IMG/VR virus record: IMGVR_UViG_3300020048_000015
Location: 32,001-96,000 of that record
Strand: one strand, 5' to 3'
DNA length: 64,000 nt
Source: a virus
Program-made: the position numbers and the translations under genes
Shown: one piece after another, positions 298 to 64,000 of the stretch
Numbering within the stretch: position 1 is the stretch's first letter
Layout: every line of letters starts with the position of its first letter
Notes under the pieces: model-generated
What the model was told of the DNA's origin: nothing
The model's database searches: none
What the model saw: only the letters and a program-made list of their open reading frames with translations

Positions 298-747
298 TTA
301 AATATTATTTTTCCAAATAGGCATCACATCTACATTTGAAGGAACTTTATAATCTTTTGAATATATTTGAATTTCCGGAATAATGTATTCGGATTTAATA
401 GAATGTTTAGTTCTACTTTTTAAATTTTCTATACAAGCATTTGGATTATTTTCAAACCATATTTCTTCCAAAATATAGTCTTTATGTTCGTATAATTTAT
501 TTATTAATTTATTATAAAACCCATTAAATTTCAAATACTCTTCAAAATATGGGGAAGTTAAAATTATATCTGAACCAGCATTTAAAAGACTATCAATTTT
601 ATCAAATGATGCAATATCATCTAATATTTCATATTGGTTATCAATATTCATAATTTTAGCAAGATGGCTTTTTCCTGATCCAGGAAGTCCATGAATCCAA
701 ATAAAATGTTTATCAGAAAAGTCTTCAAAAAGTCTTAAATATTTCAT
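298..747 (-). CDS. P-loop kinase (AAA_33/Pnk-kinase-like) with N-terminal leader
   Basis: Walker A GLPGSGKS, EILDDI; starts MKYLRLFEDF. Confidence 0.65.
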   Translation of the reverse strand: MKYLRLFEDFSDKHFIWIHGLPGSGKSHLAKIMNIDNQYEILDDIASFDKIDSLLNAGSDIILTSPYFEEYLKFNGFYNKLINKLYEHKDYILEEIWFENNPNACIENLKSRTKHSIKSEYIIPEIQIYSKDYKVPSNVDVMPIWKNNI

Positions 748-789
748 TATTTTATTTTTCTGTGTATTTTTTTATTATAAATTTATTAA

Positions 790-1368
790 TCACCAATATC
801 CAGGATATGTCTTTCCGGAAAATAAGTGACCAAATTTAGTTAGTCTACATGACCAATATGAAGCAGTGAGCTTATCAGATGGTTTCCATGACCTATCACA
901 TTTGTGCCTTGCTGAAAATGCCTTTCTTGCTTTAGGATTACTTATTTTAGCAGTTAACCCACCTTTAACATCACCAAAGTTAACACATTTTATATTGCCT
1001 GTTTTTGGATTCTTTACGTAGACTTTATATTTCTTTGGCCCGGAACTACGCATTGGATGGTTTAAGTCAACTTCTTTTCCTTTATATTCAGCTTCATTTA
1101 ATTCATAAATATTTTCTAATGGTAAATCTAATGGAACTAATTCACCCTCAAATAAATCAAATTTACCAATATCACTTGATTCATATAATTCTTTATCCAA
1201 CTCACACAAATTTATTTTACCCAATTCAAATAATTCCCTACCTTCTTTTATAATATCAAAAAATGCTTTGGATCCAGGTCTATAAACATTTTCAGTTATT
1301 GGTTTATCATTTTGGAGATGATATTTAATAGATTCAGAATATTCATTAAAAAATTGTATATATTTCAT
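790..1368 (-). CDS. Conserved phage protein, basic C-terminal domain
   Basis: Likely start MKYIQFFNEY at 1368; C-terminal KCVNFGD...ARKAFSARHKC...TASYWSC. Confidence 0.6.
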   Translation of the reverse strand: MKYIQFFNEYSESIKYHLQNDKPITENVYRPGSKAFFDIIKEGRELFELGKINLCELDKELYESSDIGKFDLFEGELVPLDLPLENIYELNEAEYKGKEVDLNHPMRSSGPKKYKVYVKNPKTGNIKCVNFGDVKGGLTAKISNPKARKAFSARHKCDRSWKPSDKLTASYWSCRLTKFGHLFSGKTYPGYW

Positions 1369-1373
1369 AAATA

Positions 1374-1419
1374 AAAAAAGAGATTTCATTTATATATTAA
1401 TAAATGAAATCTCTTTTTT
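1374..1419. terminator. 19-bp perfect hairpin with A/T tracts
   Basis: Arms 1374-1392 and 1401-1419 are exact reverse complements. Confidence 0.65.
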
Positions 1420-1420
1420 A

Positions 1421-1720
1421 CTACAAATCAACATAAATATAAATGATTTTACCTTTATCATTTATAAACCTTTTATACTTTATTTTACCATTCATATAAT
1501 CAACTTGACCCTTTTTATAAGCTTCTTGATATATAGAATCAATATTTACTGGTTTATTATCTACAATGGTATTCTTAATTGAATTATAATCAAAAATATA
1601 TAAACCAACCACACCTATTATAACACCAATTAAACTAAAATATGTTGGTTTTATATCACCAGCCAAAGCATTTATAAAAAATGATATAGTAGATATTAAA
1701 ATTATAAAAATAAAAATCAT
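1421..1720 (-). CDS. Small membrane protein
   Basis: Two hydrophobic N-terminal segments. Confidence 0.55.
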   Translation of the reverse strand: MIFIFIILISTISFFINALAGDIKPTYFSLIGVIIGVVGLYIFDYNSIKNTIVDNKPVNIDSIYQEAYKKGQVDYMNGKIKYKRFINDKGKIIYIYVDL

Positions 1721-1722
1721 AT

Positions 1723-2305: not shown

Positions 2306-2620
2306 TTAATATGTGTCCACTTTATATAGTTTTACATTTTTCATTTCTTCTGACAATATATAATTAATTTCTCCGACAATATTAGATTTTGGATCCTTGC
2401 CACCAGAACGTAATTTTATAGAATCATCAAATGTTACATAAACACCTATTTTATTCCCAGAATCATGTCCACTTTCATCCTCTACTATTACACAATCTTT
2501 ACCATAGTGAAATTTTAAAGCATTCACAGCATCTAAAACTTCATCTATACTATTGCCTATTAGTTCATATTTACTTTGTAAGTAATTTTCAAATAAATTA
2601 ATGTGTTTTAACTTTTTCAT
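2306..2620 (-). CDS. Hypothetical protein with N-terminal leader
   Basis: Starts MKKLKHINLFENY. Confidence 0.65.
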   Translation of the reverse strand: MKKLKHINLFENYLQSKYELIGNSIDEVLDAVNALKFHYGKDCVIVEDESGHDSGNKIGVYVTFDDSIKLRSGGKDPKSNIVGEINYILSEEMKNVKLYKVDTY

Positions 2621-4453: not shown

Positions 4454-4759
4454 ATGAAATTTATTAGAACCTTTGAAAGTTACGAACTTAATTCCACTTG
4501 TCCATCAAGAGAAGAAATGATTTCTCACCTATATGTATGTGGTTACAACGAATCTGAGTGTGGTGAAATGTCTATGGATGAGCTTGAAATGCACTATAAT
4601 AAAGAGGTTGGTGGAATGACATATGAAGCTAGAAAAAATAAAAAAGTAGCGAAAAAAGCAAGACCAGATTTTTTAGACTTAGATAAAGATGGTAACAAAA
4701 AAGAATCTATGAAAAAAGCAAGCAAAGATTCAAAAGAAGTCCAGGGGAGAAAAAAATAA
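4454..4759 (+). CDS. Small protein with leader and DxDxDG motif
   Basis: MKFIRTFESY; PDFLDLDKDGNKKESMKK. Confidence 0.65.
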   Translation: MKFIRTFESYELNSTCPSREEMISHLYVCGYNESECGEMSMDELEMHYNKEVGGMTYEARKNKKVAKKARPDFLDLDKDGNKKESMKKASKDSKEVQGRKK

Positions 4760-4790: not shown

Positions 4791-5228
4791 ATGAGAAAAT
4801 TTAAATATATTAAATCATTTTTGGAATCAAGCCGAAGAACAGATATAGGTCGCCAAATCGAGCCTTCAACATTTAATGACATATATGATAGTCTTAAAGG
4901 TGAAGCATATTTTAAATTTGAAAATTATGAAACTTGGTCAACAGCATATCAAGATGATATAATTGAAGATGATGCAACTAATAGAATATTAGATAAATTA
5001 ACACCATCTGAGACATTTAATTCGTATGAAGAATGGAAAAATTCAAAGTGGTATAAACTAACAGAATTTCCGTTTTCCGAAAAAGATTGGACAATGGCTA
5101 GTGTAGATGACCAGAAACCTATAAAGTGGCAATCAACTGGTCATAAGTTACAAGCAGAGTTAATTTTTAATAGTTATTTAAAAAAATTCGGAAAATTTAT
5201 AGTTGTAGATTTAACTGATAAGGTATAA
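4791..5228 (+). CDS. Hypothetical protein with leader
   Basis: MRKFKYIKSFLES. Confidence 0.65.
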   Translation: MRKFKYIKSFLESSRRTDIGRQIEPSTFNDIYDSLKGEAYFKFENYETWSTAYQDDIIEDDATNRILDKLTPSETFNSYEEWKNSKWYKLTEFPFSEKDWTMASVDDQKPIKWQSTGHKLQAELIFNSYLKKFGKFIVVDLTDKV

Positions 5229-5229
5229 T

Positions 5230-7468: not shown

Positions 7469-7690
7469 CTATTCTTCTAATAAATTTTCTATTTTATAAT
7501 CTCGCCAATCTTCTAATGACATAAAATTATATTTTGGAATTCCCATACAGCAATCACCAAAGTAAACCCAACAATAAAAGTAGTTATTATCATATAAGTT
7601 ATTAACATAGATTTCAACATCATATGTTTTGCCAACTATTATTGGATAATTTGCAGCATCTCTACAAATTAATTTAAGTTTTACTATCAT
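7469..7690 (-). CDS. Small protein with C-terminal RxxKIxxLL tag
   Basis: Ends SLEDWRDYKIENLLEE. Confidence 0.6.
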   Translation of the reverse strand: MIVKLKLICRDAANYPIIVGKTYDVEIYVNNLYDNNYFYCWVYFGDCCMGIPKYNFMSLEDWRDYKIENLLEE

Positions 7691-8251: not shown

Positions 8252-8446
8252 TTATTCTAAAATTTTTTTAATTCTATTTTCCCGATATTCTTCTATTGTT
8301 TCAAAATAAAATTCCATAATAGATTTTGATATTTTCGTTATATATGAATCTTCAAGATATACATTATAATTACCATTTGTATCTTCTACAAAAATATATT
8401 CACTTCCAATAAAAAATGGATTCTTTTTACCTATCATCCTCATCAA
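8252..8446 (-). CDS. Small protein with C-terminal tag
   Basis: Ends TIEEYRENRIKKILE. Confidence 0.6.
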   Translation of the reverse strand: MMRMIGKKNPFFIGSEYIFVEDTNGNYNVYLEDSYITKISKSIMEFYFETIEEYRENRIKKILE

Positions 8447-9597: not shown

Positions 9598-9837
9598 ATG
9601 AAATATTTGAAATCATTTGAAAATTATTCAATGAATACTGAACAACAAGAAGAAAAGAATCCACATCACATAACACCAAAAGAAGTTCCTGGTAGACAAA
9701 GACCACCAAGAGTCCAAGAGGAAGAAGAAAATAATCCACATCACACAACACCAGAAGAAACCCCAAGTAGACAAACTTCTGAAATTGATATGGATGATAT
9801 GGATGATATGGATGTCCCAAGTTATGGTTACTATTAA
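9598..9837 (+). CDS. Low-complexity acidic protein with leader
   Basis: MKYLKSFENY; duplicated EExNPHHxTPxE; DMDDMDDMD. Confidence 0.65.
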   Translation: MKYLKSFENYSMNTEQQEEKNPHHITPKEVPGRQRPPRVQEEEENNPHHTTPEETPSRQTSEIDMDDMDDMDVPSYGYY

Positions 9838-10585: not shown

Positions 10586-11671
10586 ATGATTAATGGATAT
10601 AAAGATTATATTATTGAACAATTAAAAAAGGAAATAATAATATTATCAAATCAGATAAATGAATCAGACCAAAAGGAGTCGCTTTTGATAAGAAAATTAA
10701 CAGATTTAGTTAATTTTGTATTAGAAAAAGGAAATAATATAGGGATGCCTATATTAAAAGCATTTTGGGATGTTATTAAATGGAATAAATATATATCACT
10801 TACCCTATTTTCATTATTAATGTTTAAATTTGGTTTAACTGCTGAAGAAATATACAATAGCTTTGGTGAAAAAAGAGAAATAAAAGAACTTATAAATAAA
10901 GCTGACCAAAGTAATATAGGAGATGATCAAGTAAAACTAAGTGTTGAAGATTCTAAAATAAAAGATGACGAAATACTAAAAATAAATGACTTTATTGATA
11001 AGGCTAAGGATAAAGCACAAGCTCAAGATGATGTAGATGATATAGATTATCATAAAGGTGATTTAATAGACTTTATGAAGGCTGTTGCATTTAGAGAATC
11101 AAGTTGGGATCCAGGCGTTGTAAATAGCTGTGGGTTTATGGGATTATACCAAATGGGTAATGATGCTTTAAGTGATATGGGAATGGTTAAACAAGTTAAT
11201 ACTAAGAAATTCATATGGTCTAAACATGGTGCTTATAAAATATTTCCAATTGAAGATCAAAATAAAGCTATGATAAAACTAATGCGATTAAATAAAAAAA
11301 GACTTCAAAAACATATTGAAAAATATGTTGGCAGGACAATAAGTTGTGTTGTTGATGGAAATGAGTTAAATATACCGATTACCGAATCTGGACTATTAGC
11401 AGGCGCACATTTATTGGGCTCTGGTAATGTTATGAAATTTTTAAATTCTAATGGGAAAATAATACCAAAAGATGGCAATGCTTCTTCTTTACATAGAACA
11501 CCAATAACAGAATATATCAATAAATTTTCACATTATGATATGACACAATTAAATTATATGTCCTTAGAAGATATAGAAGATATAGAAATAATACCAGGAT
11601 TTAAAAAAGGATCTAAATTTAGGTCTTGGGTTAAATTAGACACCAATCAAAAATCACCAAATAAACCTTAA
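10586..11671 (+). CDS. Lysozyme/lytic-transglycosylase-fold protein (putative virion-associated lysin)
   Basis: AVAFRESS (catalytic Glu-Ser), GFMGLYQMG, LLAGAHLLGSG. Confidence 0.65.
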   Translation: MINGYKDYIIEQLKKEIIILSNQINESDQKESLLIRKLTDLVNFVLEKGNNIGMPILKAFWDVIKWNKYISLTLFSLLMFKFGLTAEEIYNSFGEKREIKELINKADQSNIGDDQVKLSVEDSKIKDDEILKINDFIDKAKDKAQAQDDVDDIDYHKGDLIDFMKAVAFRESSWDPGVVNSCGFMGLYQMGNDALSDMGMVKQVNTKKFIWSKHGAYKIFPIEDQNKAMIKLMRLNKKRLQKHIEKYVGRTISCVVDGNELNIPITESGLLAGAHLLGSGNVMKFLNSNGKIIPKDGNASSLHRTPITEYINKFSHYDMTQLNYMSLEDIEDIEIIPGFKKGSKFRSWVKLDTNQKSPNKP

Positions 11672-14279: not shown

Positions 14280-16028
14280 ATGAAAAAAATAGAAGATAAA
14301 TATAAAGTATTAAGTCACATTGATCATATATTACTTAGACCACAAACATACTTAGGATCAAATAAACCACACACATCTATCAAATGGGTTTGTGTTGATG
14401 AAAAGATGCTTAAAAAGGAAATAACATACACACCATCATTTCTTAAAATATTTGATGAGATCATAACGAATTGTTGCGATGAAAATAAAAGAAATCCTGA
14501 TACATTAAATATAATAAAAGTAAATGTAGATAAAGATAATGGAATAATATCAATATATGATAATGGTGGCATTCCTATATTATTACACAAAGAACATAAT
14601 AAATATGTCCCAGAAGTTATTTTTGGAACATTGATGTCAGGATCAAACTATGATGATAATGATGAAAGAACAGGCGCTGGTGTAAATGGTTATGGTTCTA
14701 AATTAACTAATGTATTTTCAAAAGAGTTTGTTGTATCTTCTTGTGATGGCAAAAATAGCTTCTATCAAGTTTTTTCAAATAATATGAGGGATAGAAATGA
14801 ACCTAAAATTAAAAAGAATAAAACAAATCATACTGAAATAAAATACAAACCGGACTTTGAAAAATTTGGATTGGATGATATAAACGAAGAACATTATTTA
14901 TTAATATACAAAAGAGTTATTGATATTGCTGGTTGTAATCCATCAATTAAAGTTTTCTTCAATAATATAGAAATCAAAATTAAATCCTTTGAAGACTATG
15001 TTAAATATTATGAAACAGAATATTATATTGAATCAAATCAAGATAAGAGTTGGAATATAGCTATATCACATTCTAACGAAGGATTTCAACAAGTTAGTTT
15101 TGTAAACACAACTGAAACATATGATGGGGGAACCCATGTTGATTATATTTTAAATCAAATACTAACACAACTAAGAGAATTTTTTCAAAAGAAGCATAAA
15201 GTTGATGTAAAGCCATCTGAATTAAAAAACCATATTGCTATATACTTAGATGTAACTGTTGTAAATCCAATGTTTTCTTCACAAACTAAAGAAAAATTAA
15301 TAACAGAAGTTAAGGATTTTGGACACATTCATCAAATATCTGAAAAATTAATAAAATGGATATTAAAATCTGAAATAGTTAATTCAATATTAGACTGGAT
15401 TCAAAGAAAAAAAGAAGCTGATGAAAATAAATTAACAAGAGAATTAAATAAAAACATATCTAAAATTAAAGTAGATAAATTGATTGATGCAAAAGGAAAG
15501 ACAAGGAATCTATGTTCCTTAGCAATATTTGAAGGGGATTGTCTATCAGAAGATACTTTTATTAGAATTTTAAGGGATGGTGAATTTTTTGATATCCATA
15601 TAAAAGATACCAAAGTTGGTGATTTGGTCATAACACATAATAATAGTTTTTCTGATATTTATGCTATTTCAAAAAAAATTAAAGAAAAAGCAACAATAAA
15701 GCTAAAAGGACTTGATGATATTATATGTAGCCACGAACATAAATGGTTTGTATATGATTACATTAAAAATCAATTTTATTTCGAAGAAACTAAAAATCTA
15801 AAAAAAGATAAACATAAATTAGTTAAAAACTATTTAGCATTTACTGATGATTTACATAGGATAAATAAAATTGATAATAACATCATAGATATATTTATTG
15901 ATACCATAGAAGCTAATCCAGAACATAAATTTGCAGTATATGATAATTCAGATAATAAATTTAAAATGATAGAAACAAAAAACTTAAATAAAGACATACA
16001 TTTTTTAGTAAACACCTTCAAATTATAA
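14280..16028 (+). CDS. Type IIA topoisomerase ATPase/TOPRIM subunit, N-extein (420 aa) fused to split intein N-half
   Basis: HILLRPQTYLGS, FDEIITN, DNGG, SGSNYDD, GVNGYGSKLTN, TYDGGTHV, IFEGD followed by CLSEDT. Confidence 0.92.
   Translation: MKKIEDKYKVLSHIDHILLRPQTYLGSNKPHTSIKWVCVDEKMLKKEITYTPSFLKIFDEIITNCCDENKRNPDTLNIIKVNVDKDNGIISIYDNGGIPILLHKEHNKYVPEVIFGTLMSGSNYDDNDERTGAGVNGYGSKLTNVFSKEFVVSSCDGKNSFYQVFSNNMRDRNEPKIKKNKTNHTEIKYKPDFEKFGLDDINEEHYLLIYKRVIDIAGCNPSIKVFFNNIEIKIKSFEDYVKYYETEYYIESNQDKSWNIAISHSNEGFQQVSFVNTTETYDGGTHVDYILNQILTQLREFFQKKHKVDVKPSELKNHIAIYLDVTVVNPMFSSQTKEKLITEVKDFGHIHQISEKLIKWILKSEIVNSILDWIQRKKEADENKLTRELNKNISKIKVDKLIDAKGKTRNLCSLAIFEGDCLSEDTFIRILRDGEFFDIHIKDTKVGDLVITHNNSFSDIYAISKKIKEKATIKLKGLDDIICSHEHKWFVYDYIKNQFYFEETKNLKKDKHKLVKNYLAFTDDLHRINKIDNNIIDIFIDTIEANPEHKFAVYDNSDNKFKMIETKNLNKDIHFLVNTFKL
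15540..16025 (+). mobile_element. Split intein N-half (162 aa)
   Basis: Block A CLSEDTFI right after EGD; VGDLVITH; block B CSHEHKW, duplicated as ANPEHKF; ends at TAA. Confidence 0.88.
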
Positions 16029-16227
16029 CATCACCTTCGAAACAGACTTTTGGGTTAATCCAAACAATAAAGAAATTACTGCAAGTGAAGCATATCTTAA
16101 ACAAGAATTAAAATTAAATACAGCTAAAGAAAAAGGTTTTTTTATTTTGGAAATTTGGTCAGATGAAGATAACAAAGTAGATAAAGTATTAAATTTTATA
16201 AAAAATAATATAAATAAAAATGGTTGA
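16012..16227 (+). pseudogene. Decayed Vsr/DUF559-like endonuclease C-terminal fragment
   Basis: Start-less third-frame ORF: ETDFWVNP...KLNTAKEKGFFILEIWSDE. Confidence 0.6.
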
Positions 16228-16351
16228 AAGTTTTTTAGAACTAATAGAAATTAATGATATCTTATTAGAAGATGAATATTTAAATATGGTTGATATATCA
16301 GTAAATGTAGAACAAAGCTTTTTATTATCAAATGGATTAATTTCCCACAAT
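16220..16351 (+). mobile_element. Split intein C-half
   Basis: Block F/G DISV..EQSF..NGLISHN, terminal His-Asn followed by +1 Ser. Confidence 0.9.
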
Positions 16352-17328: not shown

Positions 17329-17356
17329 GAATAAGCACCAAATTTGGTGCTTATTC
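17329..17356. terminator. Intrinsic terminator hairpin between convergent genes
   Basis: gaataagcaccaa/ttggtgcttattc. Confidence 0.65.
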
Positions 17357-47616: not shown

Positions 47617-47658
47617 AAAAATAAATCTGTAAATTTAAAAATTTACAGATTTATTTTT
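47617..47658. terminator. Bidirectional intrinsic terminator
   Basis: aaaaataaatctgtaaat/atttacagatttattttt. Confidence 0.75.
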
Positions 47659-49861
47659 ATTTATTTTTGAATTTATGGTAATTAAGAATTAAATTTTCGT
47701 TTGATTTTTTTGATAGAAAATTTAAAATTTTCGTTTTGGCTTTTTCGTCTTTTATGTAATCAAAAATAAATTTATAAAATTTATTTGAATTATCAATAGT
47801 AATAAGTTTACTAAGTTCAATATTATCTATTTCTTCACTAAGTTTATCATTATTATCAACAAATAAAATTGTTCCATCTCCATTTATGATTTCAGAAATA
47901 AAATCAGTTACTTTTTCCAAATTATCTTTGCTAATAAAATTAAGTATCTTTTGTTTATCTTGTATGAAATACATTCCTATTATATAAGCTACAAAATTAT
48001 CACGACTTTGATTTTCACCTTTATCGTATAACCATTTTAATAATTCTTCTGGCTTATCATCCGGATAAGAAAGTTTAAAATATTCATACCTTTCTTCTGC
48101 ATTACTTGGATTACTTAAATTTGCCTTTTTTATTTCCTTTAGTTTATTAAGGAGATTTTTATCAGTTATTATATCAGTTATTATATCATTAATGTATTTT
48201 TCATCATCAGGAACTTTTGCCATAATTTCTGGATTATCTATTAAATATTCGGCTAATTTATTATTTTGTTTTTTATTTGAACTAAATAAACTTATAATAC
48301 TATATGGTGAAAAAATATTATTAGAAATTAATTTTATTATATCATTTGTGTCACATTTTAATATTAAATCTTCTAACTTTCCATAAATATAAATTGTGTC
48401 TTTAGGTAAAAAATTATTTTTATCTAAATATATTAGTAAAGCTTCTAATTTTTCACTGTTTTTTTCCTCCAAAGCTTTTATTATTGCATATTTACCTAAA
48501 TCTTCTTTGTAATGGTAACTTAAATCAGATACATTTTCTATTATTTCTGATAGACTTACAAAATCGTAGTAATACATATCTTTTAAACTATTTGGATATA
48601 TATCCACATATTTTTTTATCAATGATTTTTTTAAATTATCGTCTTTAAAATAATCATTGGACTTTAATTTTTGAATCTCATCTTTATTCTCTGAATCAAT
48701 TTCTTTCTTTATCTTATGTATGAATAAAATCATAGAAAGAGGTTCCGGAAATAGTCCATATAAATCAAAACTTTGTGAAAGTTTTGATATATTGTAGGAA
48801 ATAGAGTCTATATGATCTTTGGGTATTTCAAATTTTTTTAAATTAGGTTTAAATTCTAATATAAAATCTTCAATTTTTTTTATTTCTTCTTCACCCCCCC
48901 TATATAAAATTTTATATATATAATTATTTATTCGCTCGTCAAGAATAGAAACATCTTCATTATTTTTTTTATGATGAATGTAAATATCAAATATATCATT
49001 ATCATCAAGAATATCAAATATATTAGAATCTTTAAAAAAGTTTAAATCTTCTTTAAAAAGTGTATCCTTCAAGCCTTGACTTATTCTTAACTTACTAGCA
49101 GAATTATCTTTTTCATATTTTATATAATCTATTATTATTGATTTAAATTCATCAACCCTATCTCTACACACTACAAAAATACCATTACCAACAATTGAAT
49201 AAAAATCGGGATCAGTGGCTATTTTTGACCACACTTTTTTTGCTGATGAACTTGCATTATCTTTAGAACTTGCATACCCTAAATGTTTAATGAATTCTTC
49301 ATATATAATATAACCTAATCCAATACCCAGAAATTCATTTGGAATTCCACCACCAAAATGTGTTCTGTTATATTTTTCTTCATCATTGTGACCTATTGTT
49401 ATTACTATATTTTCCAACCTTTTAAAATCAACTTTATTTGGATCAAAATCTAAACTTTTGTATTTTTTATACAAATGCTCAAACCCCTTTGGAAATATCA
49501 CATCTCTTTCTTTAGGGATTCTTGAATCACCATTTCTATCACCTTTAGAAAATCCAGATTTATCATCATATGATTTTTTTATATCCAAATTTCTACCAAG
49601 TTCTTTGAAATTTTTTTTAAAATCTTCTGGGAAATTAACTTTAAAAGTGTTTCCAGTTCTTTCAAATTTCAATCCCCAATTAACACCACTCGTTTTTGAA
49701 GAATCTTCAAATGGTTTTCCATACTTTTTTCTTACTAAACTTAAATTTTTACCATCACTATAACCACTTGATTTTGGTTCAAGATAAGTTCCAATTAAAT
49801 CACTTGATTTTAATTCATAAATACTTTTTATGAAATTTTCAAATTTTTTTATTTTAGCCAT
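47657..49861 (-). CDS. 734-aa protein with leader and a GNAT-like segment
   Basis: MAKIKKFENF; PNEFLGIGLGYIIYE...SSSAKKVWSKI. Confidence 0.6.
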   Translation of the reverse strand: MAKIKKFENFIKSIYELKSSDLIGTYLEPKSSGYSDGKNLSLVRKKYGKPFEDSSKTSGVNWGLKFERTGNTFKVNFPEDFKKNFKELGRNLDIKKSYDDKSGFSKGDRNGDSRIPKERDVIFPKGFEHLYKKYKSLDFDPNKVDFKRLENIVITIGHNDEEKYNRTHFGGGIPNEFLGIGLGYIIYEEFIKHLGYASSKDNASSSAKKVWSKIATDPDFYSIVGNGIFVVCRDRVDEFKSIIIDYIKYEKDNSASKLRISQGLKDTLFKEDLNFFKDSNIFDILDDNDIFDIYIHHKKNNEDVSILDERINNYIYKILYRGGEEEIKKIEDFILEFKPNLKKFEIPKDHIDSISYNISKLSQSFDLYGLFPEPLSMILFIHKIKKEIDSENKDEIQKLKSNDYFKDDNLKKSLIKKYVDIYPNSLKDMYYYDFVSLSEIIENVSDLSYHYKEDLGKYAIIKALEEKNSEKLEALLIYLDKNNFLPKDTIYIYGKLEDLILKCDTNDIIKLISNNIFSPYSIISLFSSNKKQNNKLAEYLIDNPEIMAKVPDDEKYINDIITDIITDKNLLNKLKEIKKANLSNPSNAEERYEYFKLSYPDDKPEELLKWLYDKGENQSRDNFVAYIIGMYFIQDKQKILNFISKDNLEKVTDFISEIINGDGTILFVDNNDKLSEEIDNIELSKLITIDNSNKFYKFIFDYIKDEKAKTKILNFLSKKSNENLILNYHKFKNK

Positions 49862-49902
49862 ATTTATTTATTTAATCATTTACTTATATATTAAAAAAAA
49901 TA

Positions 49903-50121
49903 TTATAAATTTATTTTTTTTATATCATTAATACTAACATCATATGTCTTATTATCTATTTCAACTGTTACTTCATCACCATCTATGGAGATTGGTCTAA
50001 CTTCTGTTGGATTGTCAAATAAGCCTTTAACTATATTAGTTTCAATAGTTCCACCATTTTCTATACATTTTATAATATCTTCTGACTTTATATAATGTTC
50101 AAATACTTTGATATATCTCAT
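49903..50121 (-). CDS. Small protein with leader
   Basis: MRYIKVFEHY. Confidence 0.65.
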   Translation of the reverse strand: MRYIKVFEHYIKSEDIIKCIENGGTIETNIVKGLFDNPTEVRPISIDGDEVTVEIDNKTYDVSINDIKKINL

Positions 50122-50178
50122 TTATAATAATTTTTTTTAATATATATTTTATATATTAAAAAATACTCTTATATTTAT

Positions 50179-51354
50179 ATGTTTATAAAAAATTACAACA
50201 AATTCTTAGAATCTAAAAATCAAAAAACTATGTGGGACATAATTCCAAATTCAGTTAAAGTGTTACATAAATTATTTACAGCTAATAATAAAAAATTATA
50301 TGTTGTTGGTGGTGCTGTTAGGGATTTCTTAAATAACGAAAAACCTAAAGACTTTGACCTTTGTACTGATGCAACTCCAGATGAAGTTATTGATATTCTT
50401 AAAGATTACAAAACTAACCTTCAAGGTAAAGCATTTGGTGTTGTTGTAGTATTTACAGATGACCAACCTGAAGGAATGGAAATTGCAACTTTTAGAGAAG
50501 ATGTTTATGATACTAAATTAGGGAAATCAAGAAATCCAAATAGTGTTAATTTTACAACTATTGATAAAGATGTTAAAAGACGTGATATCACTTATAATGC
50601 TATGTTTTTTGATTTGGATAAAAAAGAAATTGTAGATTTAGTTGGCGGACAAGAAGATATTAAAAACAAAATTACCAAATTTGTTGGTGAACCTTCTGAA
50701 AGAATTATTGAAGATTCACTTAGAATCTTAAGAATTTTGAGATTTTCTTGTAGATACAATTTTTCCATTGATGAAAAAACTGCTGATGCAATTAAAGAAA
50801 ATGCTGATACCCTTAAAATAATTTCAAAGGAAAGAATCTATGATGAAATGAAGAAAGCTTGGAAACAAGCTAAATCATACACAACTTACCTTAACTATTT
50901 TATTGAGTTTGGATTATTTGAACATATATTTCCAAATGCTTTAGTAAATAAAGAAGTTAAAGATTGTAAGTTTTTTGTAACATATATTGCTAACCTTTTT
51001 AAAAATGATAAACTATCAGATTTAGAAAAAAGATTAATTCAAACATATAAATTTGATAGTGATGTTGTTTCTAAAGCATTATTCCTAATTAACTTAGTTA
51101 ATTTATCACCAGATAATGCATTCAACTTATTTAAAATGAAAAACTCTTCACATTGTGAAGATAGTGTTATCCTTGATTGGTTTAATATTAATGATTTAAA
51201 TGATAATATGTTCATTAAATTTTTAGAATATACACCAAGTGTATCTGCTGAAGAATTAATGGCTAAGGGGATAAAAGGAAAGGAATTAGGTGACACTATT
51301 AAAAGAATGGAATCTGATAATTTTAAAAAATTAATTGAAAAAAATGAAAATTAA
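50179..51354 (+). CDS. Class II tRNA nucleotidyltransferase (CCA-adding/poly(A) polymerase family) with leader
   Basis: VVGGAVRD, DFDLCT, EIATFR, DVKRRDITYNA, EDSLRILRILRF, ISKERI. Confidence 0.9.
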   Translation: MFIKNYNKFLESKNQKTMWDIIPNSVKVLHKLFTANNKKLYVVGGAVRDFLNNEKPKDFDLCTDATPDEVIDILKDYKTNLQGKAFGVVVVFTDDQPEGMEIATFREDVYDTKLGKSRNPNSVNFTTIDKDVKRRDITYNAMFFDLDKKEIVDLVGGQEDIKNKITKFVGEPSERIIEDSLRILRILRFSCRYNFSIDEKTADAIKENADTLKIISKERIYDEMKKAWKQAKSYTTYLNYFIEFGLFEHIFPNALVNKEVKDCKFFVTYIANLFKNDKLSDLEKRLIQTYKFDSDVVSKALFLINLVNLSPDNAFNLFKMKNSSHCEDSVILDWFNINDLNDNMFIKFLEYTPSVSAEELMAKGIKGKELGDTIKRMESDNFKKLIEKNEN

Positions 51355-52087
51355 TAGATTAAATTATATTAAAGATACTGTTGGAAACAACTATCTTGGA
51401 ATAAAAATACCACAAACAATTGTTCAGCCTTTCCTGGATATATTAAAAAATATAATAGGTGTTGAAGATTATGATATATATGTTAAGAATCAACAAAATA
51501 GAGATCATGGATCACATCACATTACTGTCATTAATGTTATGGACTATAATAACTTATCTAAGGAATTTGGCATTGATAAATTTGTTAGTTCATTAGATGC
51601 TGCTTTTGATTATAATATAGATGATCTTAAATTGATGGGTGTGGGTAAAGCAGAAAAGTCAGGAAACTGTGCTTATTTTATTGTAGTAAATTCAGAAAAA
51701 TCAGATGCTATAAGAACTAGATATAATCTACCTAAACAAGATTTTCATATAACAATTGGATTTAAATATAAAGATGTATTTGGTGTTAGAAAAAATGAAG
51801 TTATTAAAGAGCATGAACCATTTCTAAAAATACTAAAGAAATACTATTATGATTACAACGAAAGGTTTGAATTCATAAAAGAAATTGATGGATTTGATTT
51901 AGACACTGAAAAAGAAATTGAACCAATTAAAATTGAATCTACTTATGCTACATTTAGAATAGATAATGTTTATTTTAATGTTAGTTTAATAGATGATAAT
52001 TTTAGAATAACTGCTCAATGGGATGGATCTGAAAAAAAACCTATATTAGCTAATACACTAATAGCAAAAAAATTTAAAGAAATATAA
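51344..52087 (+). CDS. 2H phosphoesterase
   Basis: Two HxT motifs (HHITV, FHITIG) about 80 aa apart. Confidence 0.75.
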   Translation: MKINRLNYIKDTVGNNYLGIKIPQTIVQPFLDILKNIIGVEDYDIYVKNQQNRDHGSHHITVINVMDYNNLSKEFGIDKFVSSLDAAFDYNIDDLKLMGVGKAEKSGNCAYFIVVNSEKSDAIRTRYNLPKQDFHITIGFKYKDVFGVRKNEVIKEHEPFLKILKKYYYDYNERFEFIKEIDGFDLDTEKEIEPIKIESTYATFRIDNVYFNVSLIDDNFRITAQWDGSEKKPILANTLIAKKFKEI

Positions 52088-52377: not shown

Positions 52378-52983
52378 TTGAAACACTTAAAATTATTTGA
52401 ATCTTGGGTAAATACACCAACATTCTATAGACTTTCCCATTATGATTTATTAAATGGTAATTCAAATGGTGAATATCAACCAACTAAAAGAGTCCGAATG
52501 ATTGGACCATCAATAATCAATGATGCACTTGTGAATAAAGGATTTCCTGATAAAACTAATTGTGTACATTTTATGGATGAAAAAGCGTTTAATGAAAGTG
52601 GTGTAACAATGGTTAATATTTGGGGTAGAAATTCTTATGAAGTAAAAATTGATGATAATTCTATTATAGCGTGGACTTTTTTACTTAATATAAATGATTG
52701 GTATTTAAAGAGCAGTTCATATAGATATTATTCAGATGAAAAGATAATAAAAGATTTGAAAATTAGTGGATATGATGAAGTAGAAACTGCAACAGACGAA
52801 TATGATGATATAGATATAGAATCCACTAAAATTGAACAAATTGAAAGTATGACAGATTTATTGGTTAGTAACGAAGTTATAGGGTTTGGGAAAATTGATG
52901 ATTTAAAAAAATCAAAATATTATAATCAATATAGACTTTTTGCTTGGACTAATGACAAAGTATATCTAAATAAAATAAAATAA
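52378..52983 (+). CDS. Hypothetical protein with leader (TTG start)
   Basis: MKHLKLFESW. Confidence 0.65.
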   Translation: MKHLKLFESWVNTPTFYRLSHYDLLNGNSNGEYQPTKRVRMIGPSIINDALVNKGFPDKTNCVHFMDEKAFNESGVTMVNIWGRNSYEVKIDDNSIIAWTFLLNINDWYLKSSSYRYYSDEKIIKDLKISGYDEVETATDEYDDIDIESTKIEQIESMTDLLVSNEVIGFGKIDDLKKSKYYNQYRLFAWTNDKVYLNKIK

Positions 52984-55477: not shown

Positions 55478-55933
55478 ATGAAATATTTAAAATTATTTGA
55501 AAATTTTGATCAAACTAAAATTGATGCTATTTGTAAAAAATATGGTATATGGAATTATACAATAAATACTGATGGATCCATTGATGTTAATACTGATGTT
55601 TTATTATATAGAAGAAATCTAACTAAATTACCATTGAAATTTAATAGGGTTTCTGGTTCGTTCCATTGTCAGGATAATTTACTAACCAATTTAGATGGTT
55701 ATCCAAAAGAAATTGGTGGTTTTTCTTTTTATGATCATAATCCAATAACACAAATAATAGATTTATTTGTTAATGCTGACACATATATAGAGTACCAAGA
55801 AACATATAATTTTGTTAGAAAGGATTGTAAAATTGTTAAACACCTTTTAGAAGAAGCTTTAAAGGACTATAATGAATATTATAATAAGAATAAAAAATTA
55901 CCACAAGAAATAAAAGGATATACTTATATATAA
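55478..55933 (+). CDS. Variable LRR-like family, 1 repeat
   Basis: True start MKYLKLFENF at 55478 (151 aa). Confidence 0.85.
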   Translation: MKYLKLFENFDQTKIDAICKKYGIWNYTINTDGSIDVNTDVLLYRRNLTKLPLKFNRVSGSFHCQDNLLTNLDGYPKEIGGFSFYDHNPITQIIDLFVNADTYIEYQETYNFVRKDCKIVKHLLEEALKDYNEYYNKNKKLPQEIKGYTYI

Positions 55934-56577
55934 TGAAATACTTAAAATTATTTGAAAACTTTGATCAATCAACAATTGATGATATATGTGAAGAATATGG
56001 TATAAAAAACTATACTTTAAATGCTGATGGATCTATTGATGTAAATGGTAATGTTTGGTTATTCTGTAAAGATCTAACTGAATTACCATTAAAATTTAAT
56101 AAGGTTACTGGTTATTTCAATTGTTCTGCTAATAAATTAACCAATTTAGAAGGTGCGCCTAATTATGTAGGAACTGGTTTTTTTTGTTTTAATAATAACC
56201 TAACAAGTTTAATAGGTGGTCCTAAAGAAGTCGTTGGTAAATTTTATATAAAAGGTAATTATTTAACCAATTTAATAGGTGGTCCTAAAGAAGTTATTGG
56301 GGATTTTGATTGCTCAGATAATAAATTAACTAGTTTAGATGGATATCCTAACTATATAAGTGGTTATTTTACTCGCAACGAAAATCCAATAGATACAATA
56401 ATTATATTATTTAGAGGTATTAAAACATATTTAGAATACCAAGAAACATATAATTTTATAAGAAAAGATGGTAAAATAATTAAGCATTTATTTGAAGAAG
56501 CAATTAAAGATTATAATGAATATTATGATGATTGTGTTGAAATGCCAGAAAAAATAGAAGGATATACTTACATATGA
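55933..56577 (+). CDS. Variable LRR-like family, 4 repeats
   Basis: Same caps and units. Confidence 0.85.
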   Translation: MKYLKLFENFDQSTIDDICEEYGIKNYTLNADGSIDVNGNVWLFCKDLTELPLKFNKVTGYFNCSANKLTNLEGAPNYVGTGFFCFNNNLTSLIGGPKEVVGKFYIKGNYLTNLIGGPKEVIGDFDCSDNKLTSLDGYPNYISGYFTRNENPIDTIIILFRGIKTYLEYQETYNFIRKDGKIIKHLFEEAIKDYNEYYDDCVEMPEKIEGYTYI

Positions 56578-57095
56578 AATACTTAAAATTATTTGAAAAT
56601 TTTAATCAATCTGAAATTGATGCTATTTGTAAACAATATAAAATACAAAATTACACAATAAATCCAAATGGATCTATTGATGTTGATGGCAATGTTTATT
56701 TACCTTTAAGAAATCTAAATAAACTACCACTTAAATTTAATAAAGTAACTGGTTGGTTTGATTGTTCTGATAATGAATTGAATAACTTAGAAGGTTGTCC
56801 AAATTATGTAGGTGATATTTTTAATTGTGCTTATAATGAATTAACCAATTTAGATGGTTATCCAAAAGAAGTTGGTCGTGGTTTTTATTGGGATGGAAAT
56901 CCCATATCAGAAATTATATATTTATTTGGATATAGTATTAAAATTTATTTGGAGTATCAAGAAACATATAATTTTGTTAGAAAAGATTGTAAAATAATTA
57001 AGCACTTATTAGAAGAAGCTTTAAAGGACTATAATGAATATTATAATAGTCAGAAAGAATTGCCAAAAAAAATAGATGGATATACTTATATATGA
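56574..57095 (+). CDS. Variable LRR-like family, 2 repeats
   Basis: Same caps and units. Confidence 0.85.
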   Translation: MKYLKLFENFNQSEIDAICKQYKIQNYTINPNGSIDVDGNVYLPLRNLNKLPLKFNKVTGWFDCSDNELNNLEGCPNYVGDIFNCAYNELTNLDGYPKEVGRGFYWDGNPISEIIYLFGYSIKIYLEYQETYNFVRKDCKIIKHLLEEALKDYNEYYNSQKELPKKIDGYTYI

Positions 57096-58210: not shown

Positions 58211-58891
58211 TTAAATTATATCAAAAACAATGCAGGTATCACCAAAATTTTCACCTTTGTAAGACCACCAAATTCCACCCTCCCTCAAGACATCAATCTT
58301 AGGTGGTTTTGATACAAATTCATATCCATCGAAACTTCCATATCTATATTCACTTAACCAATTATACTTTCTAGTATCATAACTTCTATTACCAATATTT
58401 TTCCATTTTCCACATCCCTGAAGATCGTAATTTACATATATAATTCTTGTTCCAACATTAGCAGTCTTGAATATTTGAGAAATTATATCATACATATCTT
58501 TATCTTTAACCATTGGTCTATACATATATATAACATCTAAATTAGAATAATTGAATTTTTTAGCATCTCCATATACTACTGATATATCTTTGTGATATTC
58601 TTTATATTTAGTTTGTATTTCTATTCCACTTGCATCCATCCCAAACTTTTCTGCTAACCTTACAATATTACCAAATCCACATCCAATATCAACAAATTTA
58701 GAACCTTTTAAGTATTTTTCAAAAATAGATGTAATGAATGTACCAACTGGTATGGCATCAAATTTATTATCTAAAGGGGTATTATTTCTATCTTTAAAAC
58801 CACCAATTCTTTTGGCTTTTCTATATAGACTTAGATAGAATCTATCAATTTCAGATTGATCAAAGTTTTCAAATAATTTTAAGTATTTCAT
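58211..58891 (-). CDS. Class I SAM-dependent methyltransferase carrying the LRR-family 16-aa N-terminus
   Basis: MKYLKLFENFDQSEID; FVDIGCGFGN, GIE, GDA, DVIYMYRP. Confidence 0.8.
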   Translation of the reverse strand: MKYLKLFENFDQSEIDRFYLSLYRKAKRIGGFKDRNNTPLDNKFDAIPVGTFITSIFEKYLKGSKFVDIGCGFGNIVRLAEKFGMDASGIEIQTKYKEYHKDISVVYGDAKKFNYSNLDVIYMYRPMVKDKDMYDIISQIFKTANVGTRIIYVNYDLQGCGKWKNIGNRSYDTRKYNWLSEYRYGSFDGYEFVSKPPKIDVLREGGIWWSYKGENFGDTCIVFDII

Positions 58892-59259
58892 TATATATAA
58901 GTATAATATTTAATTTCTTTTGGTAATTCTACCTGTTTATCATAATATTCATTAAAATCTTCAATAGCTTCTTCCAATCTATGTTTAACAATTTTAAAAT
59001 CCTTTCTTAAAAAATTATATGTTTCTTGATAGTCTAAATAAATATTCACATCCCCATTAAATAAATCTACTATATCCCATCCTACAATTCTATTAAATTC
59101 AAGTGGTATTTTAGTTAAATCCATCTTATAAAAATCAACATCAGCAAGAACATCAATTGTTCCATCGGTATTTATTGTATAGTATTTAATGTTATATTCT
59201 TTACATATTTTAATAATTTCTGATTTATTAAAGTTTTCAAATAATTTTATGTATAGCAT
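58891..59259 (-). CDS. Variable LRR-like family, 0 repeats (caps only)
   Basis: N-cap joined directly to C-cap. Confidence 0.8.
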   Translation of the reverse strand: MLYIKLFENFNKSEIIKICKEYNIKYYTINTDGTIDVLADVDFYKMDLTKIPLEFNRIVGWDIVDLFNGDVNIYLDYQETYNFLRKDFKIVKHRLEEAIEDFNEYYDKQVELPKEIKYYTYI

Positions 59260-61599: not shown

Positions 61600-61600
61600 T

Positions 61601-61831
61601 ATGAAATCACCAATAAGCCCAACAACTGGAAAAGAAATGATTTTACTATCAGAAAATAAAACCTTTATTAAAAGGGGCATAGAAATTGAAATACAATATC
61701 AATTTTATCTTTGTATAGATAGTGGTGAAAAATATACAACAACTGAATTAGAAGAAATCAATCTGAATCTTTTAGATTCAGAATTCAAAAGATTAAGTAG
61801 AGAATTAAGAATAAATGACATCATAAACTGA
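61601..61831 (+). CDS. MqsA/HigA-type antitoxin N-terminal-like domain with C-terminal tag
   Basis: SPTTGKEM..L..EN..F....I...FYLCIDSGEKYTT; ends RELRINDIIN. Confidence 0.55.
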   Translation: MKSPISPTTGKEMILLSENKTFIKRGIEIEIQYQFYLCIDSGEKYTTTELEEINLNLLDSEFKRLSRELRINDIIN

Positions 61832-61845
61832 TGTCATTTTTTTTT
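61813..61845. terminator. Intrinsic terminator
   Basis: aaatgacatca/tgatgtcattt then T-tract. Confidence 0.7.
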
Positions 61846-62575
61846 ATTTTTCATAATCAACTATATTAACTAAATCCTTTATGATATTATCTATTATATA
61901 GAATCCATTATTATAATTTGGATCCTTATATAATTTAATATTTAATCTACTTGAATCTATTTCATAAATTATCCATTTATCATTTATTTTATTCTTACTG
62001 TTTTTCATTTTATTTGCAAAATAATTAATCTTCATTCTATTTATAAGATTGTAACAATCATTAATGTTTTCACAAACATATATTCTATCTAAATGCTTTG
62101 ACAATTTATTTTTTGATTTTGGCACTAAGCCATATTTTAAAATATCAGTTTTATATTCTTGTATTGAAAGATGGAATAGTTTTTTTGGTATATTAGTTTC
62201 TATATCATATTTTGATTCATATATTATTTCAACTGTTTGAAAATATTTACTATTATCACTTTTAAGCATATCTTCATCATAAGAAAATTCATTCACCATA
62301 CCAGAAAAATTAGTTATAATCATCTTACTTGGAAACCAACCATGTCTATCTATAAATAAATTATCAATTACATCTAAATATAATCCAATTCCAATTATAT
62401 ATCTATAATCTAATAATTCTAAAGATATTGTATTGTTTTGATTTATCCCAATATTAAAATTATAATTCAATAATGCCAATTCTGATTTAACATTACTAAC
62501 TGTTAAATCTATATTATGGGTTTTTAAAGTTTCATTTAATATAAACTCTGACCATTTTTTTATAAATAATTTCAT
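61844..62575 (-). CDS. Leader protein with a C-terminal ADP-ribosyltransferase-like (KptA/Tpt1-type) domain
   Basis: KLFHLS..IL.YGLVPK..DRIYV..IYEID..KDPNY..GFY; paralog of 62839. Confidence 0.55.
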   Translation of the reverse strand: MKLFIKKWSEFILNETLKTHNIDLTVSNVKSELALLNYNFNIGINQNNTISLELLDYRYIIGIGLYLDVIDNLFIDRHGWFPSKMIITNFSGMVNEFSYDEDMLKSDNSKYFQTVEIIYESKYDIETNIPKKLFHLSIQEYKTDILKYGLVPKSKNKLSKHLDRIYVCENINDCYNLINRMKINYFANKMKNSKNKINDKWIIYEIDSSRLNIKLYKDPNYNNGFYIIDNIIKDLVNIVDYEK

Positions 62576-62609
62576 TATCTATATATATAATTTAATATAT
62601 ATCCTATAT

Positions 62610-62855
62610 ATGGAAAATATTTTAAAATTTAAAGACTTCATCAGAGAAGGCGCATTACCACAAGAATCTACTGTTAAACAGTTAAAGAAAATCAAAAAGA
62701 AAATTGATAAAGAAATTGGTGGTGATATTGGTGATAAAATTTCTGATATGAATAAACAAGGTGCTAATATAGACTATATTAGAAACCCAATTGAAACTGG
62801 AATAGAATCTTATCAAGATTATCAAAAAAATAATAAAAATGATAAAAAAATTTAA
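62610..62855 (+). CDS. Small protein with leader
   Basis: MENILKFKDFIRE. Confidence 0.7.
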   Translation: MENILKFKDFIREGALPQESTVKQLKKIKKKIDKEIGGDIGDKISDMNKQGANIDYIRNPIETGIESYQDYQKNNKNDKKI

Positions 62856-63558
62856 TGAATATTTAGAAACATTAAACGAAGGAATTATAAAAACAACTGA
62901 TATAGATCAAACAATAAATAGTTCACATAATTTTTTATCTAAATTAAAAATAGACTATGAAATAACTAAATTTAATAATAAAATTTTATTAAAAATAAAT
63001 AGCTTTGATAATATACATTTAATAAGAGATATATTTAATACAATTGAATCATATTTTATAAATATGAATGGTTGGTTTCCATCTACTATGGATTTAGATA
63101 GTATACACAATTCAAATAAAATATTATCATATAACAATGAATATTTAATTGCAAGACAAAACTTTTTGAAATCAGTTACTTTATATTTTGAATCTAAATT
63201 TGATATTGAAGATATTATACCAAATAAATTATATCACTTATCTATACAAAATTTTGAAAAGGGAATTATAAAATATGGTTTAGTTCCAAAAGAAAAATCT
63301 AAATTAACACAGCATCCAGATAGAATTTATGTATGTAAAACAATTCAAGATTGTAAAAATTTAATTTATCAAATGAAGTTTTATTATAGCAATTTGAAAA
63401 TAGAAAATCCAAAAAACAAAATAAATGATAAATGGATAATATATGAAATAGATACTACATCAGTAAATAAATTATATAAAGATCCAAATTACAACAATGG
63501 ATTTTATATCTTAAATCCAATTAAACCAAGTGATATAAAAATAATAGAAAAGGAATGA
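62839..63558 (+). CDS. Paralog of 61844..62575, ART-like domain
   Basis: KLYHLS..II.YGLVPK..DRIYVC..IYEID..KDPNY.NGFY. Confidence 0.55.
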   Translation: MIKKFNEYLETLNEGIIKTTDIDQTINSSHNFLSKLKIDYEITKFNNKILLKINSFDNIHLIRDIFNTIESYFINMNGWFPSTMDLDSIHNSNKILSYNNEYLIARQNFLKSVTLYFESKFDIEDIIPNKLYHLSIQNFEKGIIKYGLVPKEKSKLTQHPDRIYVCKTIQDCKNLIYQMKFYYSNLKIENPKNKINDKWIIYEIDTTSVNKLYKDPNYNNGFYILNPIKPSDIKIIEKE

Positions 63559-64000
63559 TAATTAAAAAATATAAACTATTTATGGAAAGCAAAAATAGAA
63601 CTTATGATTATGGTTGTGTTATGGTATATTTAGATATATCTAATTGGGAAAGGATAATTTCAAATATAGATGAAAATGACCTATATAAACCAGAAGATGA
63701 ACATTATGGCAGAGAAACCGAACCACATCTAACACTTCTTTATGGATTACACAAAGAAGTTACTAAAGAAGAAATATCAACTATATTTAAAGATACAAAA
63801 TCAACAGATTTTAAAATTCAAATAGATGGTATAAGTATTTTTGAAAATGATGAATTTGATGTTGTTAAAATGGATATTAAATTAAATGATAAATTAACCC
63901 ATTATAATAGTGAATTGTCAAAATTACCAAATTCTAATTCTTATAAAGACTATAAACCACATTTAACAGTTGCTTATGTTAAAAAAGGATTAGGCAAAAA
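63555..64000 (+). CDS. 2H phosphoesterase with leader, 3'-truncated by the window end (not in ORF track)
   Basis: MIIKKYKLFMES...EPHLTLLYG...YKPHLTVAY; open to the window end. Confidence 0.8.
   Translation, partial: MIIKKYKLFMESKNRTYDYGCVMVYLDISNWERIISNIDENDLYKPEDEHYGRETEPHLTLLYGLHKEVTKEEISTIFKDTKSTDFKIQIDGISIFENDEFDVVKMDIKLNDKLTHYNSELSKLPNSNSYKDYKPHLTVAYVKKGLGK

Follow-up and report, generated by a model that had tools for sequence, protein, structure and literature searches.

A shared ten-residue N-terminal tag on unrelated proteins of uncultured giant phages, a candidate capsid-targeting signal

Why should some forty genes on one viral contig, many of them with bodies unrelated to each other, open with the same ten residues? 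The question is raised by a window of 64,000 nucleotides that spans bases 32,001-96,000 of one IMG/VR viral contig, 182,728 bp long (G000; linear, 25% guanine plus cytosine (GC), with a CheckV completeness estimate of 84%), in which a first-pass annotation had noted a common leader on many proteins and had read it as a capsid-targeting code. The consensus of this tag is MK(Y/H)(L/I)K-x-F-E-x-(F/Y), typically MKYLKLFENF, and an acidic or polar linker usually comes next. Whatever its role, the tag is a conserved, virus-specific address peptide on at least 85 protein families and is new to the searchable literature, which holds no description of this peptide and no link of capsid targeting to huge phages. 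As to the role itself, we tentatively favor, at a little less than an even chance, a signal like the capsid-targeting sequence (CTS) of phage T4, one that would load proteins into the head and be trimmed there.

The existence of the tag is a statistical matter, and here the data are plain. Some version of the motif stands at every open reading frame (ORF) start at which the first-pass annotation had placed it. A position-specific scoring matrix (PSSM) built from 15 seed tags and applied to the whole contig at a cut-off score of at least 8 picks out the N-termini of 40 of the 271 ORFs, roughly 15% of the genes or one in seven, where the rate observed in 46,717 internal windows predicts 0.57. 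A strict regular expression finds 27 N-terminal matches and a single internal one in 50,511 residues, and that lone internal match is a mis-called start, the true start lying at window position 55478. Within the window, 25 ORFs reach the PSSM cut-off and two more join them after start correction (47219, MINLKTFENF, and 55478).

The number of unrelated carriers is smaller than was first claimed. Leucine-rich repeat (LRR) paralogs, which have far more than the tag in common, account for about 15 of the carriers on G000 and for 13-14 of those in the window; the bodies of the remaining carriers are unrelated to each other. Thus, of the "more than 30 unrelated proteins" originally proposed, the tag itself stands, while the window holds about 12 unrelated strict carriers, about half of all carriers belong to one LRR family, and several proteins have a looser motif only. 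This looser motif, which we call class B, reads aromatic-x-(E/D)-(F/Y)-(L/I/V)-x-E and is all that is present at 20702, 24383, 26894, 29984, 37107, 50179, 61844, 62610, 62839 and 63555. Class B is found at eight N-termini on G000 against 0.32 expected, and at four against 1.4, a weak enrichment, on G012, a related 276-kb contig used throughout as the head-bearing comparison for G000. As the first-pass annotation had also stated, the tag is absent from the topoisomerase subunits, NusG, UvdE, Hsp70/DnaK, FKBP and the 5'-3' exonuclease, families that were assigned here by Pfam and whose N-termini were read directly.

A motif so frequent on an AT-rich contig might reflect nothing more than composition or the way translation starts, the very objection that the first-pass annotation had raised against itself. 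An exact degenerate DNA pattern of the tag matched more than 111 stretches on many viral contigs, whose lengths range from 5 to 676 kb and whose GC contents range from 22 to 39%; in all, the tag is present on more than 100 viral contigs. In 596 Gb of cellular sequence, representing 185,579 genomes, there are two matches. Because cellular genomes are nearly free of the tag, and because internal positions serve as a control within the phage proteins themselves, the tag is virus-specific, and both composition bias and a general effect of host translation initiation are ruled out. Across genomes of such different composition, residues F7, E8 and F/Y10 are invariant. Nor does the tag have the build of a Sec or Tat signal peptide, with its basic N-region, hydrophobic core of some 10 or more residues and cleavage site: lysine and glutamate alternate with hydrophobic residues, the linker is acidic, and there is no hydrophobic stretch, except in two G012 proteins, in which it comes after the tag.

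Grouped by the similarity of their bodies, the 181 tagged proteins drawn from the viral matches listed, G000 and G012 make up at least 85 families. Strict copies number 3-15 in each of five near-complete T4-type genomes (controls, 0), and the complete 634-kb genome LR745206 carries 46 copies at up to two mismatches (control, 1). The tag was not found in the phages PTm1, pT24 and Lak-A2 or in the 735-kb LR756501, and no homolog of the tagged proteins from other contigs was found in cultured phages. Other types of N-terminal tag have been noted in uncultured huge phages (MNRYDIALGKKPPP, MNWYK..., MKRYI...), but these are unchecked and are not independent evidence.

The topoisomerase II encoded in the window is closest to that of uncultured 634-642 kb phages, and the capsid protein of G012 is 64% identical to that of the same 634-642 kb phages, 49% identical to that of 735-kb phages, and 27-28% identical to those of Prevotella Lak phages and Tenacibaculum phage PTm1. 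Both cellular matches lie on tiny contigs of 2-3 kb, in Sphingobacteriales and Cytophagales metagenome-assembled genomes (Bacteroidota). Because of these nearest relatives of topoisomerase II and capsid protein, together with the taxonomy of the two cellular matches, we assign G000 on sequence grounds to a T4-related megaphage of Bacteroidota, of which it is a fragment.

If the tag is not a by-product of composition, it might still be a by-product of descent, namely the inherited opening ten codons of a mobile cassette of promoter and gene start, which recombination would place in front of ever new bodies without any function for the peptide. There are observations that such a cassette would explain well: a conserved junction of about 50 bp, the tag included, links the LRR genes into chains, two genes (58211-58891, minus strand, and 40961-41371, plus strand) are chimeric, and the internal protein loci of T-even phages reportedly shuffle by way of conserved CTS DNA (reference 23 of PMC3012670). 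The DNA, however, is not what is conserved. Synonymous codons differ among the tags of G000 (TAT/TAC, TTA/CTT/CTA/TTG, AAT/AAC, TTT/TTC) and the GC-richer relatives use AAG, CTG and GAG; between genomes whose GC content ranges from 22 to 39%, divergence at synonymous sites has left the amino acids as they were; upstream DNA likewise varies widely among carriers, as does the spacing between a promoter-like box, described below, and the ATG (9-36 nt, with one at 70), and the peptide remains constant. The clearest case is the kinase-like protein at 298-747, for which homologs were sought with residues 14-149 only, leaving out the tag. All eight homologs so recovered begin with the tag, their bodies being 46-51% identical to the query apart from one near-duplicate at 99%, and in bodies some 50% identical a neutral leftover would have decayed. 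We conclude that it is the peptide rather than the DNA that selection maintains, and we consider a functionless cassette very improbable.

The same homologs show how the tag relates to the protein behind it. In five of the eight (metagenomic proteins P0004-P0008) an extra domain of about 83 residues, itself conserved among these longer forms, lies between the tag and the P-loop body, and the tag is still at residue 1. LRR paralogs, for their part, exist both tagged (the tag, then EIDEIC...) and untagged (MNIK-EIC...). Because it is retained at residue 1 across an inserted domain, and because tagged and untagged paralogs coexist, the tag is a position-dependent N-terminal add-on. A single-sequence AlphaFold model of the kinase-like protein has a mean pLDDT of 44, too low to tell whether the tag stands detached.

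What, then, does the add-on do? A first indication comes from the DNA upstream. A promoter-like box, (T)TAATATATA(G/A), dominates the upstream regions of G000, standing 9-36 nt before 51 of the 271 ORFs, an enrichment of about 10-fold; examples in the window precede the genes at 9598, 28777, 29984, 37107, 49903 and 62610. When the comparison is limited to genes with an upstream gap of their own, and the box is defined as AATATATA within 50 nt upstream, it precedes 15 of 21 tagged genes against 26 of 121 others on G000 (p ~1e-5), and 17 of 21 against 57 of 213 on G012 (p ~1e-6). On G012 the same box stands before the portal, capsid and endolysin genes; it also precedes a tape-measure-like gene, and it was not found upstream of the genes for DNA polymerase, helicase, clamp loader, gp46, topoisomerase, DnaK or primase. 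A second promoter class was sought for contrast and none emerged. Late co-expression of the tagged genes with the head genes is plausible on this evidence.

An association with one promoter class and with the very N-terminus would also be expected of a peptide that serves expression or recognition of late genes, either by boosting or timing translation on phage-modified ribosomes or by marking proteins for a phage chaperone, for a protease that degrades them at a set time, or for a modifying enzyme. The AT-rich codons of the tag might be counted toward such a role, as might the C-ending tyrosine and asparagine codons (TAC, AAC) in many copies; the tag core, with hydrophobic residues flanked by lysines, resembles a DnaK-binding peptide, and G000 encodes both an Hsp70 and an FKBP. 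A general ribosome effect is nonetheless excluded by the host, which does not use the tag (two matches in 185,579 genomes), and the invariance of F7, E8 and F/Y10 points to a specific binding partner rather than to codon or ramp effects. The tagged genes are moreover scattered over the contig with no obvious constant neighbor or partner enzyme, although no systematic search for co-occurrence was made. Overall, we regard a regulatory peptide of this kind as quite unlikely.

A further line of evidence lies in the heads of the relatives. A gp23-family capsid protein is encoded in 24 of 50 tag-bearing viral records and in six of the seven that are at least 90% complete, and a match to the gp21 protease family in 14 of the 50 and two of the seven. 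On G012 the portal, a 718-aa fusion of protease and scaffold, and the capsid protein are encoded in a row, the layout annotated in PTm1. The fusion protein (L128:8884-11040) contains about 12 near-perfect tandem repeats of 14 residues, EY(L/I)AE(N/S/T)(V/L)DKNI(A/S)Y(S/T), probably a ladder of protease sites, and the repeat core Y-(L/I)-A-E-N-(L/V) recurs in all seven other relatives examined (L118-L122, L160 and L161 among the stretches), from 13 units down to a single one in G006, some relatives having as few as 1-4. The prohead protease of T4 cuts after the glutamate of L/I-x-E (PMC5694885), and the N-termini of the relatives' proteases contain L-I-(L/V)-E, like the LIE-9 of T4 gp21 (PMC9026906). 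Because of the (L/I)-A-E repeats in the scaffold and the L-I-(L/V)-E at the protease N-terminus, the T4 rule of cutting after this glutamate is probably kept in these phages.

The tag also has a likeness to the T4 CTS. T4 IPII and IPIII both begin MKTYQEFIAE (read from NC_000866), as the first-pass annotation had correctly stated; in that peptide residues 4 and 7 are the main determinants of targeting and residues 8 and 10 those of processing (PMC9026906, citing Mullaney & Black 1996). Class B has counterparts of all four mapped residues, as in ...FFEEFIAE at contig position 99,353 and in ...YLDFIAE from a gene adjoining the G012 sheath gene. In the strict tag, the aromatic pair F7 and F/Y10 is spaced three apart, as are the T4 aromatics at 4 and 7; L-F-E followed by N inside the core fits L/I-x-E; and a further (L/I/V)-x-E comes directly after the strict core in 11 of 85 families (~13%) against a background of 2%. 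As in T4, a peptide of about ten residues that starts with MK, often with aliphatic-x-Glu next, heads otherwise unrelated proteins, here in a lineage some of whose members encode a gp23-type capsid protein, a scaffold and a protease of gp21 type that probably follows the L/I-x-E logic, and from one relative to another the cargo varies and the tag stays. The T4 internal proteins are themselves diverse, with the CTS as their common feature (PMC3012670, PMC9026906), and the review literature anticipates that a CTS would let T4-like phages pack varied proteins (PMC9026906).

There are also differences. The consensus MKYLKLFENF is three residues longer at the front than the T4 peptide; carriers number tens per genome rather than the handful of T4; and the cargo takes in an LRR family that has expanded as well as proteins as long as 734 aa in the window (890 aa in G012). 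Large head payloads are in themselves not new. Giant phages of the SPN3US type have about 50 head proteins, and in phiKZ, 201phi2-1 and SPN3US both head and ejection proteins lose their propeptides by a cut at (S/A/G)-x-E or A-x-E (PMC5694885). These phages resemble the present ones in having many internal head proteins and a gp21-related protease that cuts after glutamate, and the SPN3US paralogs gp53 and gp54 even have identical N-terminal propeptides. Their propeptides, however, are long and mostly family-specific, and no single ten-residue tag on dozens of families has been described for them.

Two further likenesses within the head module deserve mention. The tag could be imagined to mimic the scaffold repeat (L-F-E-N-F-D beside L-A-E-N-L-D), but with a PSSM of the repeat the median score of the tags is reached by 0.8% of internal 8-mers, which is not significant after the several registers tried, and LR756501 has the repeats and no tags; we make no claim of such mimicry and treat it as a lead. 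Residues 34-40 of T4 gp23, in its propeptide, contain K-I-F-E-N, and huge-phage capsid propeptides (G012 L128:11133-11700) conserve (I/M)-N-E-N at the aligned place; the resemblance to K-L-F-E-N of the tag may be coincidence.

Taken together, these observations allow the reading we favor to be set out as a pathway. The tag would be a detachable N-terminal address, and the phages that use it a clade of jumbo- and megaphages of Bacteroidota, uncultured and related to T4. We infer that tagged proteins are made late, alongside the head proteins; that through the tag they bind to the scaffolding core of the prohead while the gp23-type shell is still open; that a gp21-type prohead protease then trims after glutamate, between E and N of L-F-E-N in most and after the final E of F-(L/I/V)-x-E in a subset; and that the mature proteins remain inside the head until they pass into the host along with the DNA. 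In scale, the system would comprise about 40 genes on the 183-kb G000 and about 46 in the 634-kb relative, a variable family of LRR binders included. The capsid targeting proposed at the outset is thus the best-supported explanation of the tag, given the T4-type heads of the relatives, the L/I-x-E logic, the box common to head and lysis genes, the match to the T4 CTS, the virus specificity and the dependence on position. A bolder version, in which one ten-residue tag pre-loads some 50-100 mostly acidic proteins, among them a fast-evolving library of LRR binders and several enzyme-like proteins, for injection, and a second, mutually exclusive C-terminal tag (see below) marks another destination or loading route, seems to us possible but doubtful.

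A number of observations weigh against this reading. G000 itself has no recognizable capsid, portal, sheath or prohead-protease gene (tblastn with T4 gp18, gp20, gp21, gp22 and gp23; Pfam PF07068 and PF03420), only small capsid-like fragments, so that the head module is seen only in relatives, with which G000 has 37 of its 271 ORFs in common. The tagged proteins are acidic (median body isoelectric point 4.7-4.9, against 5.9-6.6 for other proteins), where T4 internal proteins are described as basic (PMC9026906); some cargoes run to 734-890 aa; in two tagged proteins of G012 the tag leads directly into a hydrophobic, membrane-like stretch; and a tagged share of the gene complement as high as that of G000 is far above any documented case. 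As regards cleavage, position 6 is L or I in about 63% of tags under a pattern that leaves it free, so that about a third have no L/I-x-E in the core, and huge-phage capsid proteins have no glutamate at the site aligned to LTE65 of T4, LAE and INE being conserved further upstream. LR756501 has a scaffold of the same type, with 10 repeat units, and zero tags. The promoter-like box is not cleanly late-specific, TATATATA variants of it standing before sheath, uvsX and topoisomerase genes. Finally, no tag-bearing phage was found in culture, and none with a virion proteome, N-terminal sequencing or expression data.

Alternatively, the tag might sort its carriers into some other late assembly, either on the outside of the virion (head fibers, tail or baseplate) or in an intracellular phage structure, with the LRR binders acting as interchangeable surface adhesins. 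The properties of the tag and the late-type promoter box fit that alternative equally well. About a third of the carriers are LRR binders, acidic proteins would sit more readily outside the particle than amid the packed DNA, and the G012 sheath gene is directly preceded by two genes, one for an 890-aa protein with a tag variant and one with a class-B start. PTm1, the cultured relative, reportedly bears head-fiber-like appendages. At the same time, many cargoes resemble cytoplasmic enzymes or small globular proteins rather than adhesins (the P-loop kinase-like protein and, by eye, SET-like, isochorismatase-like and HAD-like ones), and chance would have to account for the likeness to the T4 CTS and the L/I-x-E protease motif. 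We consider assembly elsewhere unlikely, and return to head loading in what follows.

What the tag would deliver can be read from its carriers, although a family search of tagged proteins and large boxed genes against PHROGs and Pfam matched almost nothing. The first-pass annotation had listed an RNA ligase, a CCA enzyme, a kinase, a peptidase and GNAT, ART-like and 2H proteins among the cargo. The RNA ligase and CCA enzyme families are real, but both proteins have the loose motif only and no strict tag: the T4 Rnl1-type ligase (PF09511; 37107-38360, plus strand) begins MKLKKYLEFIKEE, and the enzyme of the CCA-adding/poly(A)-polymerase family (PF01743; 50179-51354, plus strand) has a weak tag-like start, MFIKNYNKFLES, with a box upstream, and is a doubtful carrier. 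The kinase comes down to weak Pfam P-loop matches in a 149-aa protein with the strict tag MKYLRLFEDF (298-747, minus strand; PSSM 24.4), and no Pfam or PHROGs match to a peptidase, GNAT, ART or 2H protein was found among the leader ORFs scanned.

The other strict tags outside the LRR family are carried by proteins of varied length. On the plus strand, they comprise MKFIRTFESY (4454-4759; 101 aa, no known family by Pfam), MKYLKSFENY (9598-9837; 79 aa, with a TTAATATATA box upstream), MKHIKKFTNFINE (28777-29166), in which (L/I)-x-E comes directly after the core, MKYLKLFEDY (40961-41371), whose non-LRR body is joined to an LRR chain by the same overlap junction that links the LRR genes, MINLKTFENF (47219-47593), at an internal ATG of an ORF listed from 47102, and (M)KHLKLFESW (52378-52983), which starts with TTG (TTG AAA CAC TTA AAA TTA TTT GAA...). 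On the minus strand, MKYIQFFNEY stands at the second in-frame methionine of the gene at 790-1368, whose real start is probably 1368 rather than 1389, MKHLKLFENY heads a 189-aa protein of no known family (20112-20681), and MRYIKVFEHY a 72-aa protein (49903-50121). Variants of the tag are found as MKKLKHINLFENY, with a three-residue insertion (2306-2620, minus strand; PSSM 21.4), as the weak MRKFKYIKSFLES (4791-5228, plus strand; PSSM 10.0), and as MAKIKKFENFIKS on the 734-aa protein, which belongs to no known family (47657-49861, minus strand; PSSM 12.0).

The tagged LRR paralogs lie in runs. Three are found at 26357-28736 on the plus strand (26357-26875, 27448-28032 and 28029-28736), three chained ones at 33284-35609 on the minus strand (33284-34513, 34510-35091 and 35088-35609, with start/stop overlaps ATATGA), two chained ones at 39616-40964 on the plus strand (39616-40263 and 40260-40964), and three at 55478-57095 on the plus strand (55478-55933, with the corrected start, 55933-56577 and 56574-57095); a further one, with the tag MLYIKLFENF, is at 58891-59259 on the minus strand. 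Next to it, at 58211-58891 on the same strand, is a chimera that opens with the tag and the start of the LRR N-cap and then switches to an unlike body, which weakly matches a MetW-like methyltransferase. The 335-aa protein at 19070-20077 (plus strand; MKYIKTFEAL) falls in the LRR BLAST cluster, and its N-terminal motif is also present on two out-of-window proteins that end in LRR domains.

Class-B N-termini are found on MINGYKDYIIE (10586-11671, plus strand), which was not among the ORFs first listed, on the 392-aa protein starting ...KFSEFILE (20702-21880, minus strand), on ...YHEYLKE (26894-27451, plus strand), which has no strict tag and sits amid tagged LRR paralogs, on MILKYKDYLLES (29984-30976, plus strand), on ...WSEFILNE (61844-62575, minus strand) and on MENILKFKDFIRE (62610-62855, plus strand). 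The G012 ortholog of the protein at 29984-30976 retains its class-B N-terminus at 33% overall identity.

A second tag was noticed at the opposite end of other proteins. The C-terminal motif R-x-x-(K/R/Q/N/T)-(L/I/V)-x-x-(L/I/V/F)-(L/I/V/F/G) closes 20 ORFs of G000 against 0.48 expected, with examples in the window at 7469-7690, 8252-8446, 16930-17325, 17351-17878, 22928-23434 and 61601-61831. The two tags rarely meet on one protein: on G000 none has both, 40 have only the N-terminal and 20 only the C-terminal one, and the corresponding counts on G012 are 1, 41 and 17. Within the LRR family, 14 members have the N-terminal tag, six the C-terminal tag and none both (p ~0.006), but as proof of alternative addresses this exclusion is weak, since the two groups are subfamilies by descent.

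Several further features of these genomes deserve note. An apparent synteny between G000 and the head region of G012 dissolved on inspection, the similarity being that of homing endonucleases. Large enzymes of this kind (phrog_3339, phrog_559) are dispersed over both contigs (147759-149621 and 158557-160311 on G000; 49739-51457, 85772-87217 and 92877-94907 on G012), in some cases directly adjoin the capsid and sheath genes of G012, and make up the bulk of the non-LRR similarity between the two. In the window, the Hsp70/DnaK gene looks split (31092-31667 and 31983-33248): a 191-aa N-terminal piece matches positions 1-195 of PF00012 and is followed, after a gap of about 315 bp, by a 421-aa ORF, which is the remainder of DnaK by the label of the first-pass annotation only. 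The split could be due to an intron, an intein or an insertion. The large subunit of topoisomerase II is likewise encoded in two ORFs (14280-16028 and 16220-16933), both matched by T4 gp39, a division like that of T4 gp39 and gp60.

If head loading is the role of the tag, these giant phages would have scaled the three-protein trick of T4 up to a large and evolvable injected proteome. The tag would then provide a sequence-only rule for predicting the first proteins to enter the cell from uncultured megaphages, likely counter-defense and takeover factors, and it would offer a ready means of loading capsids of this kind with foreign proteins.

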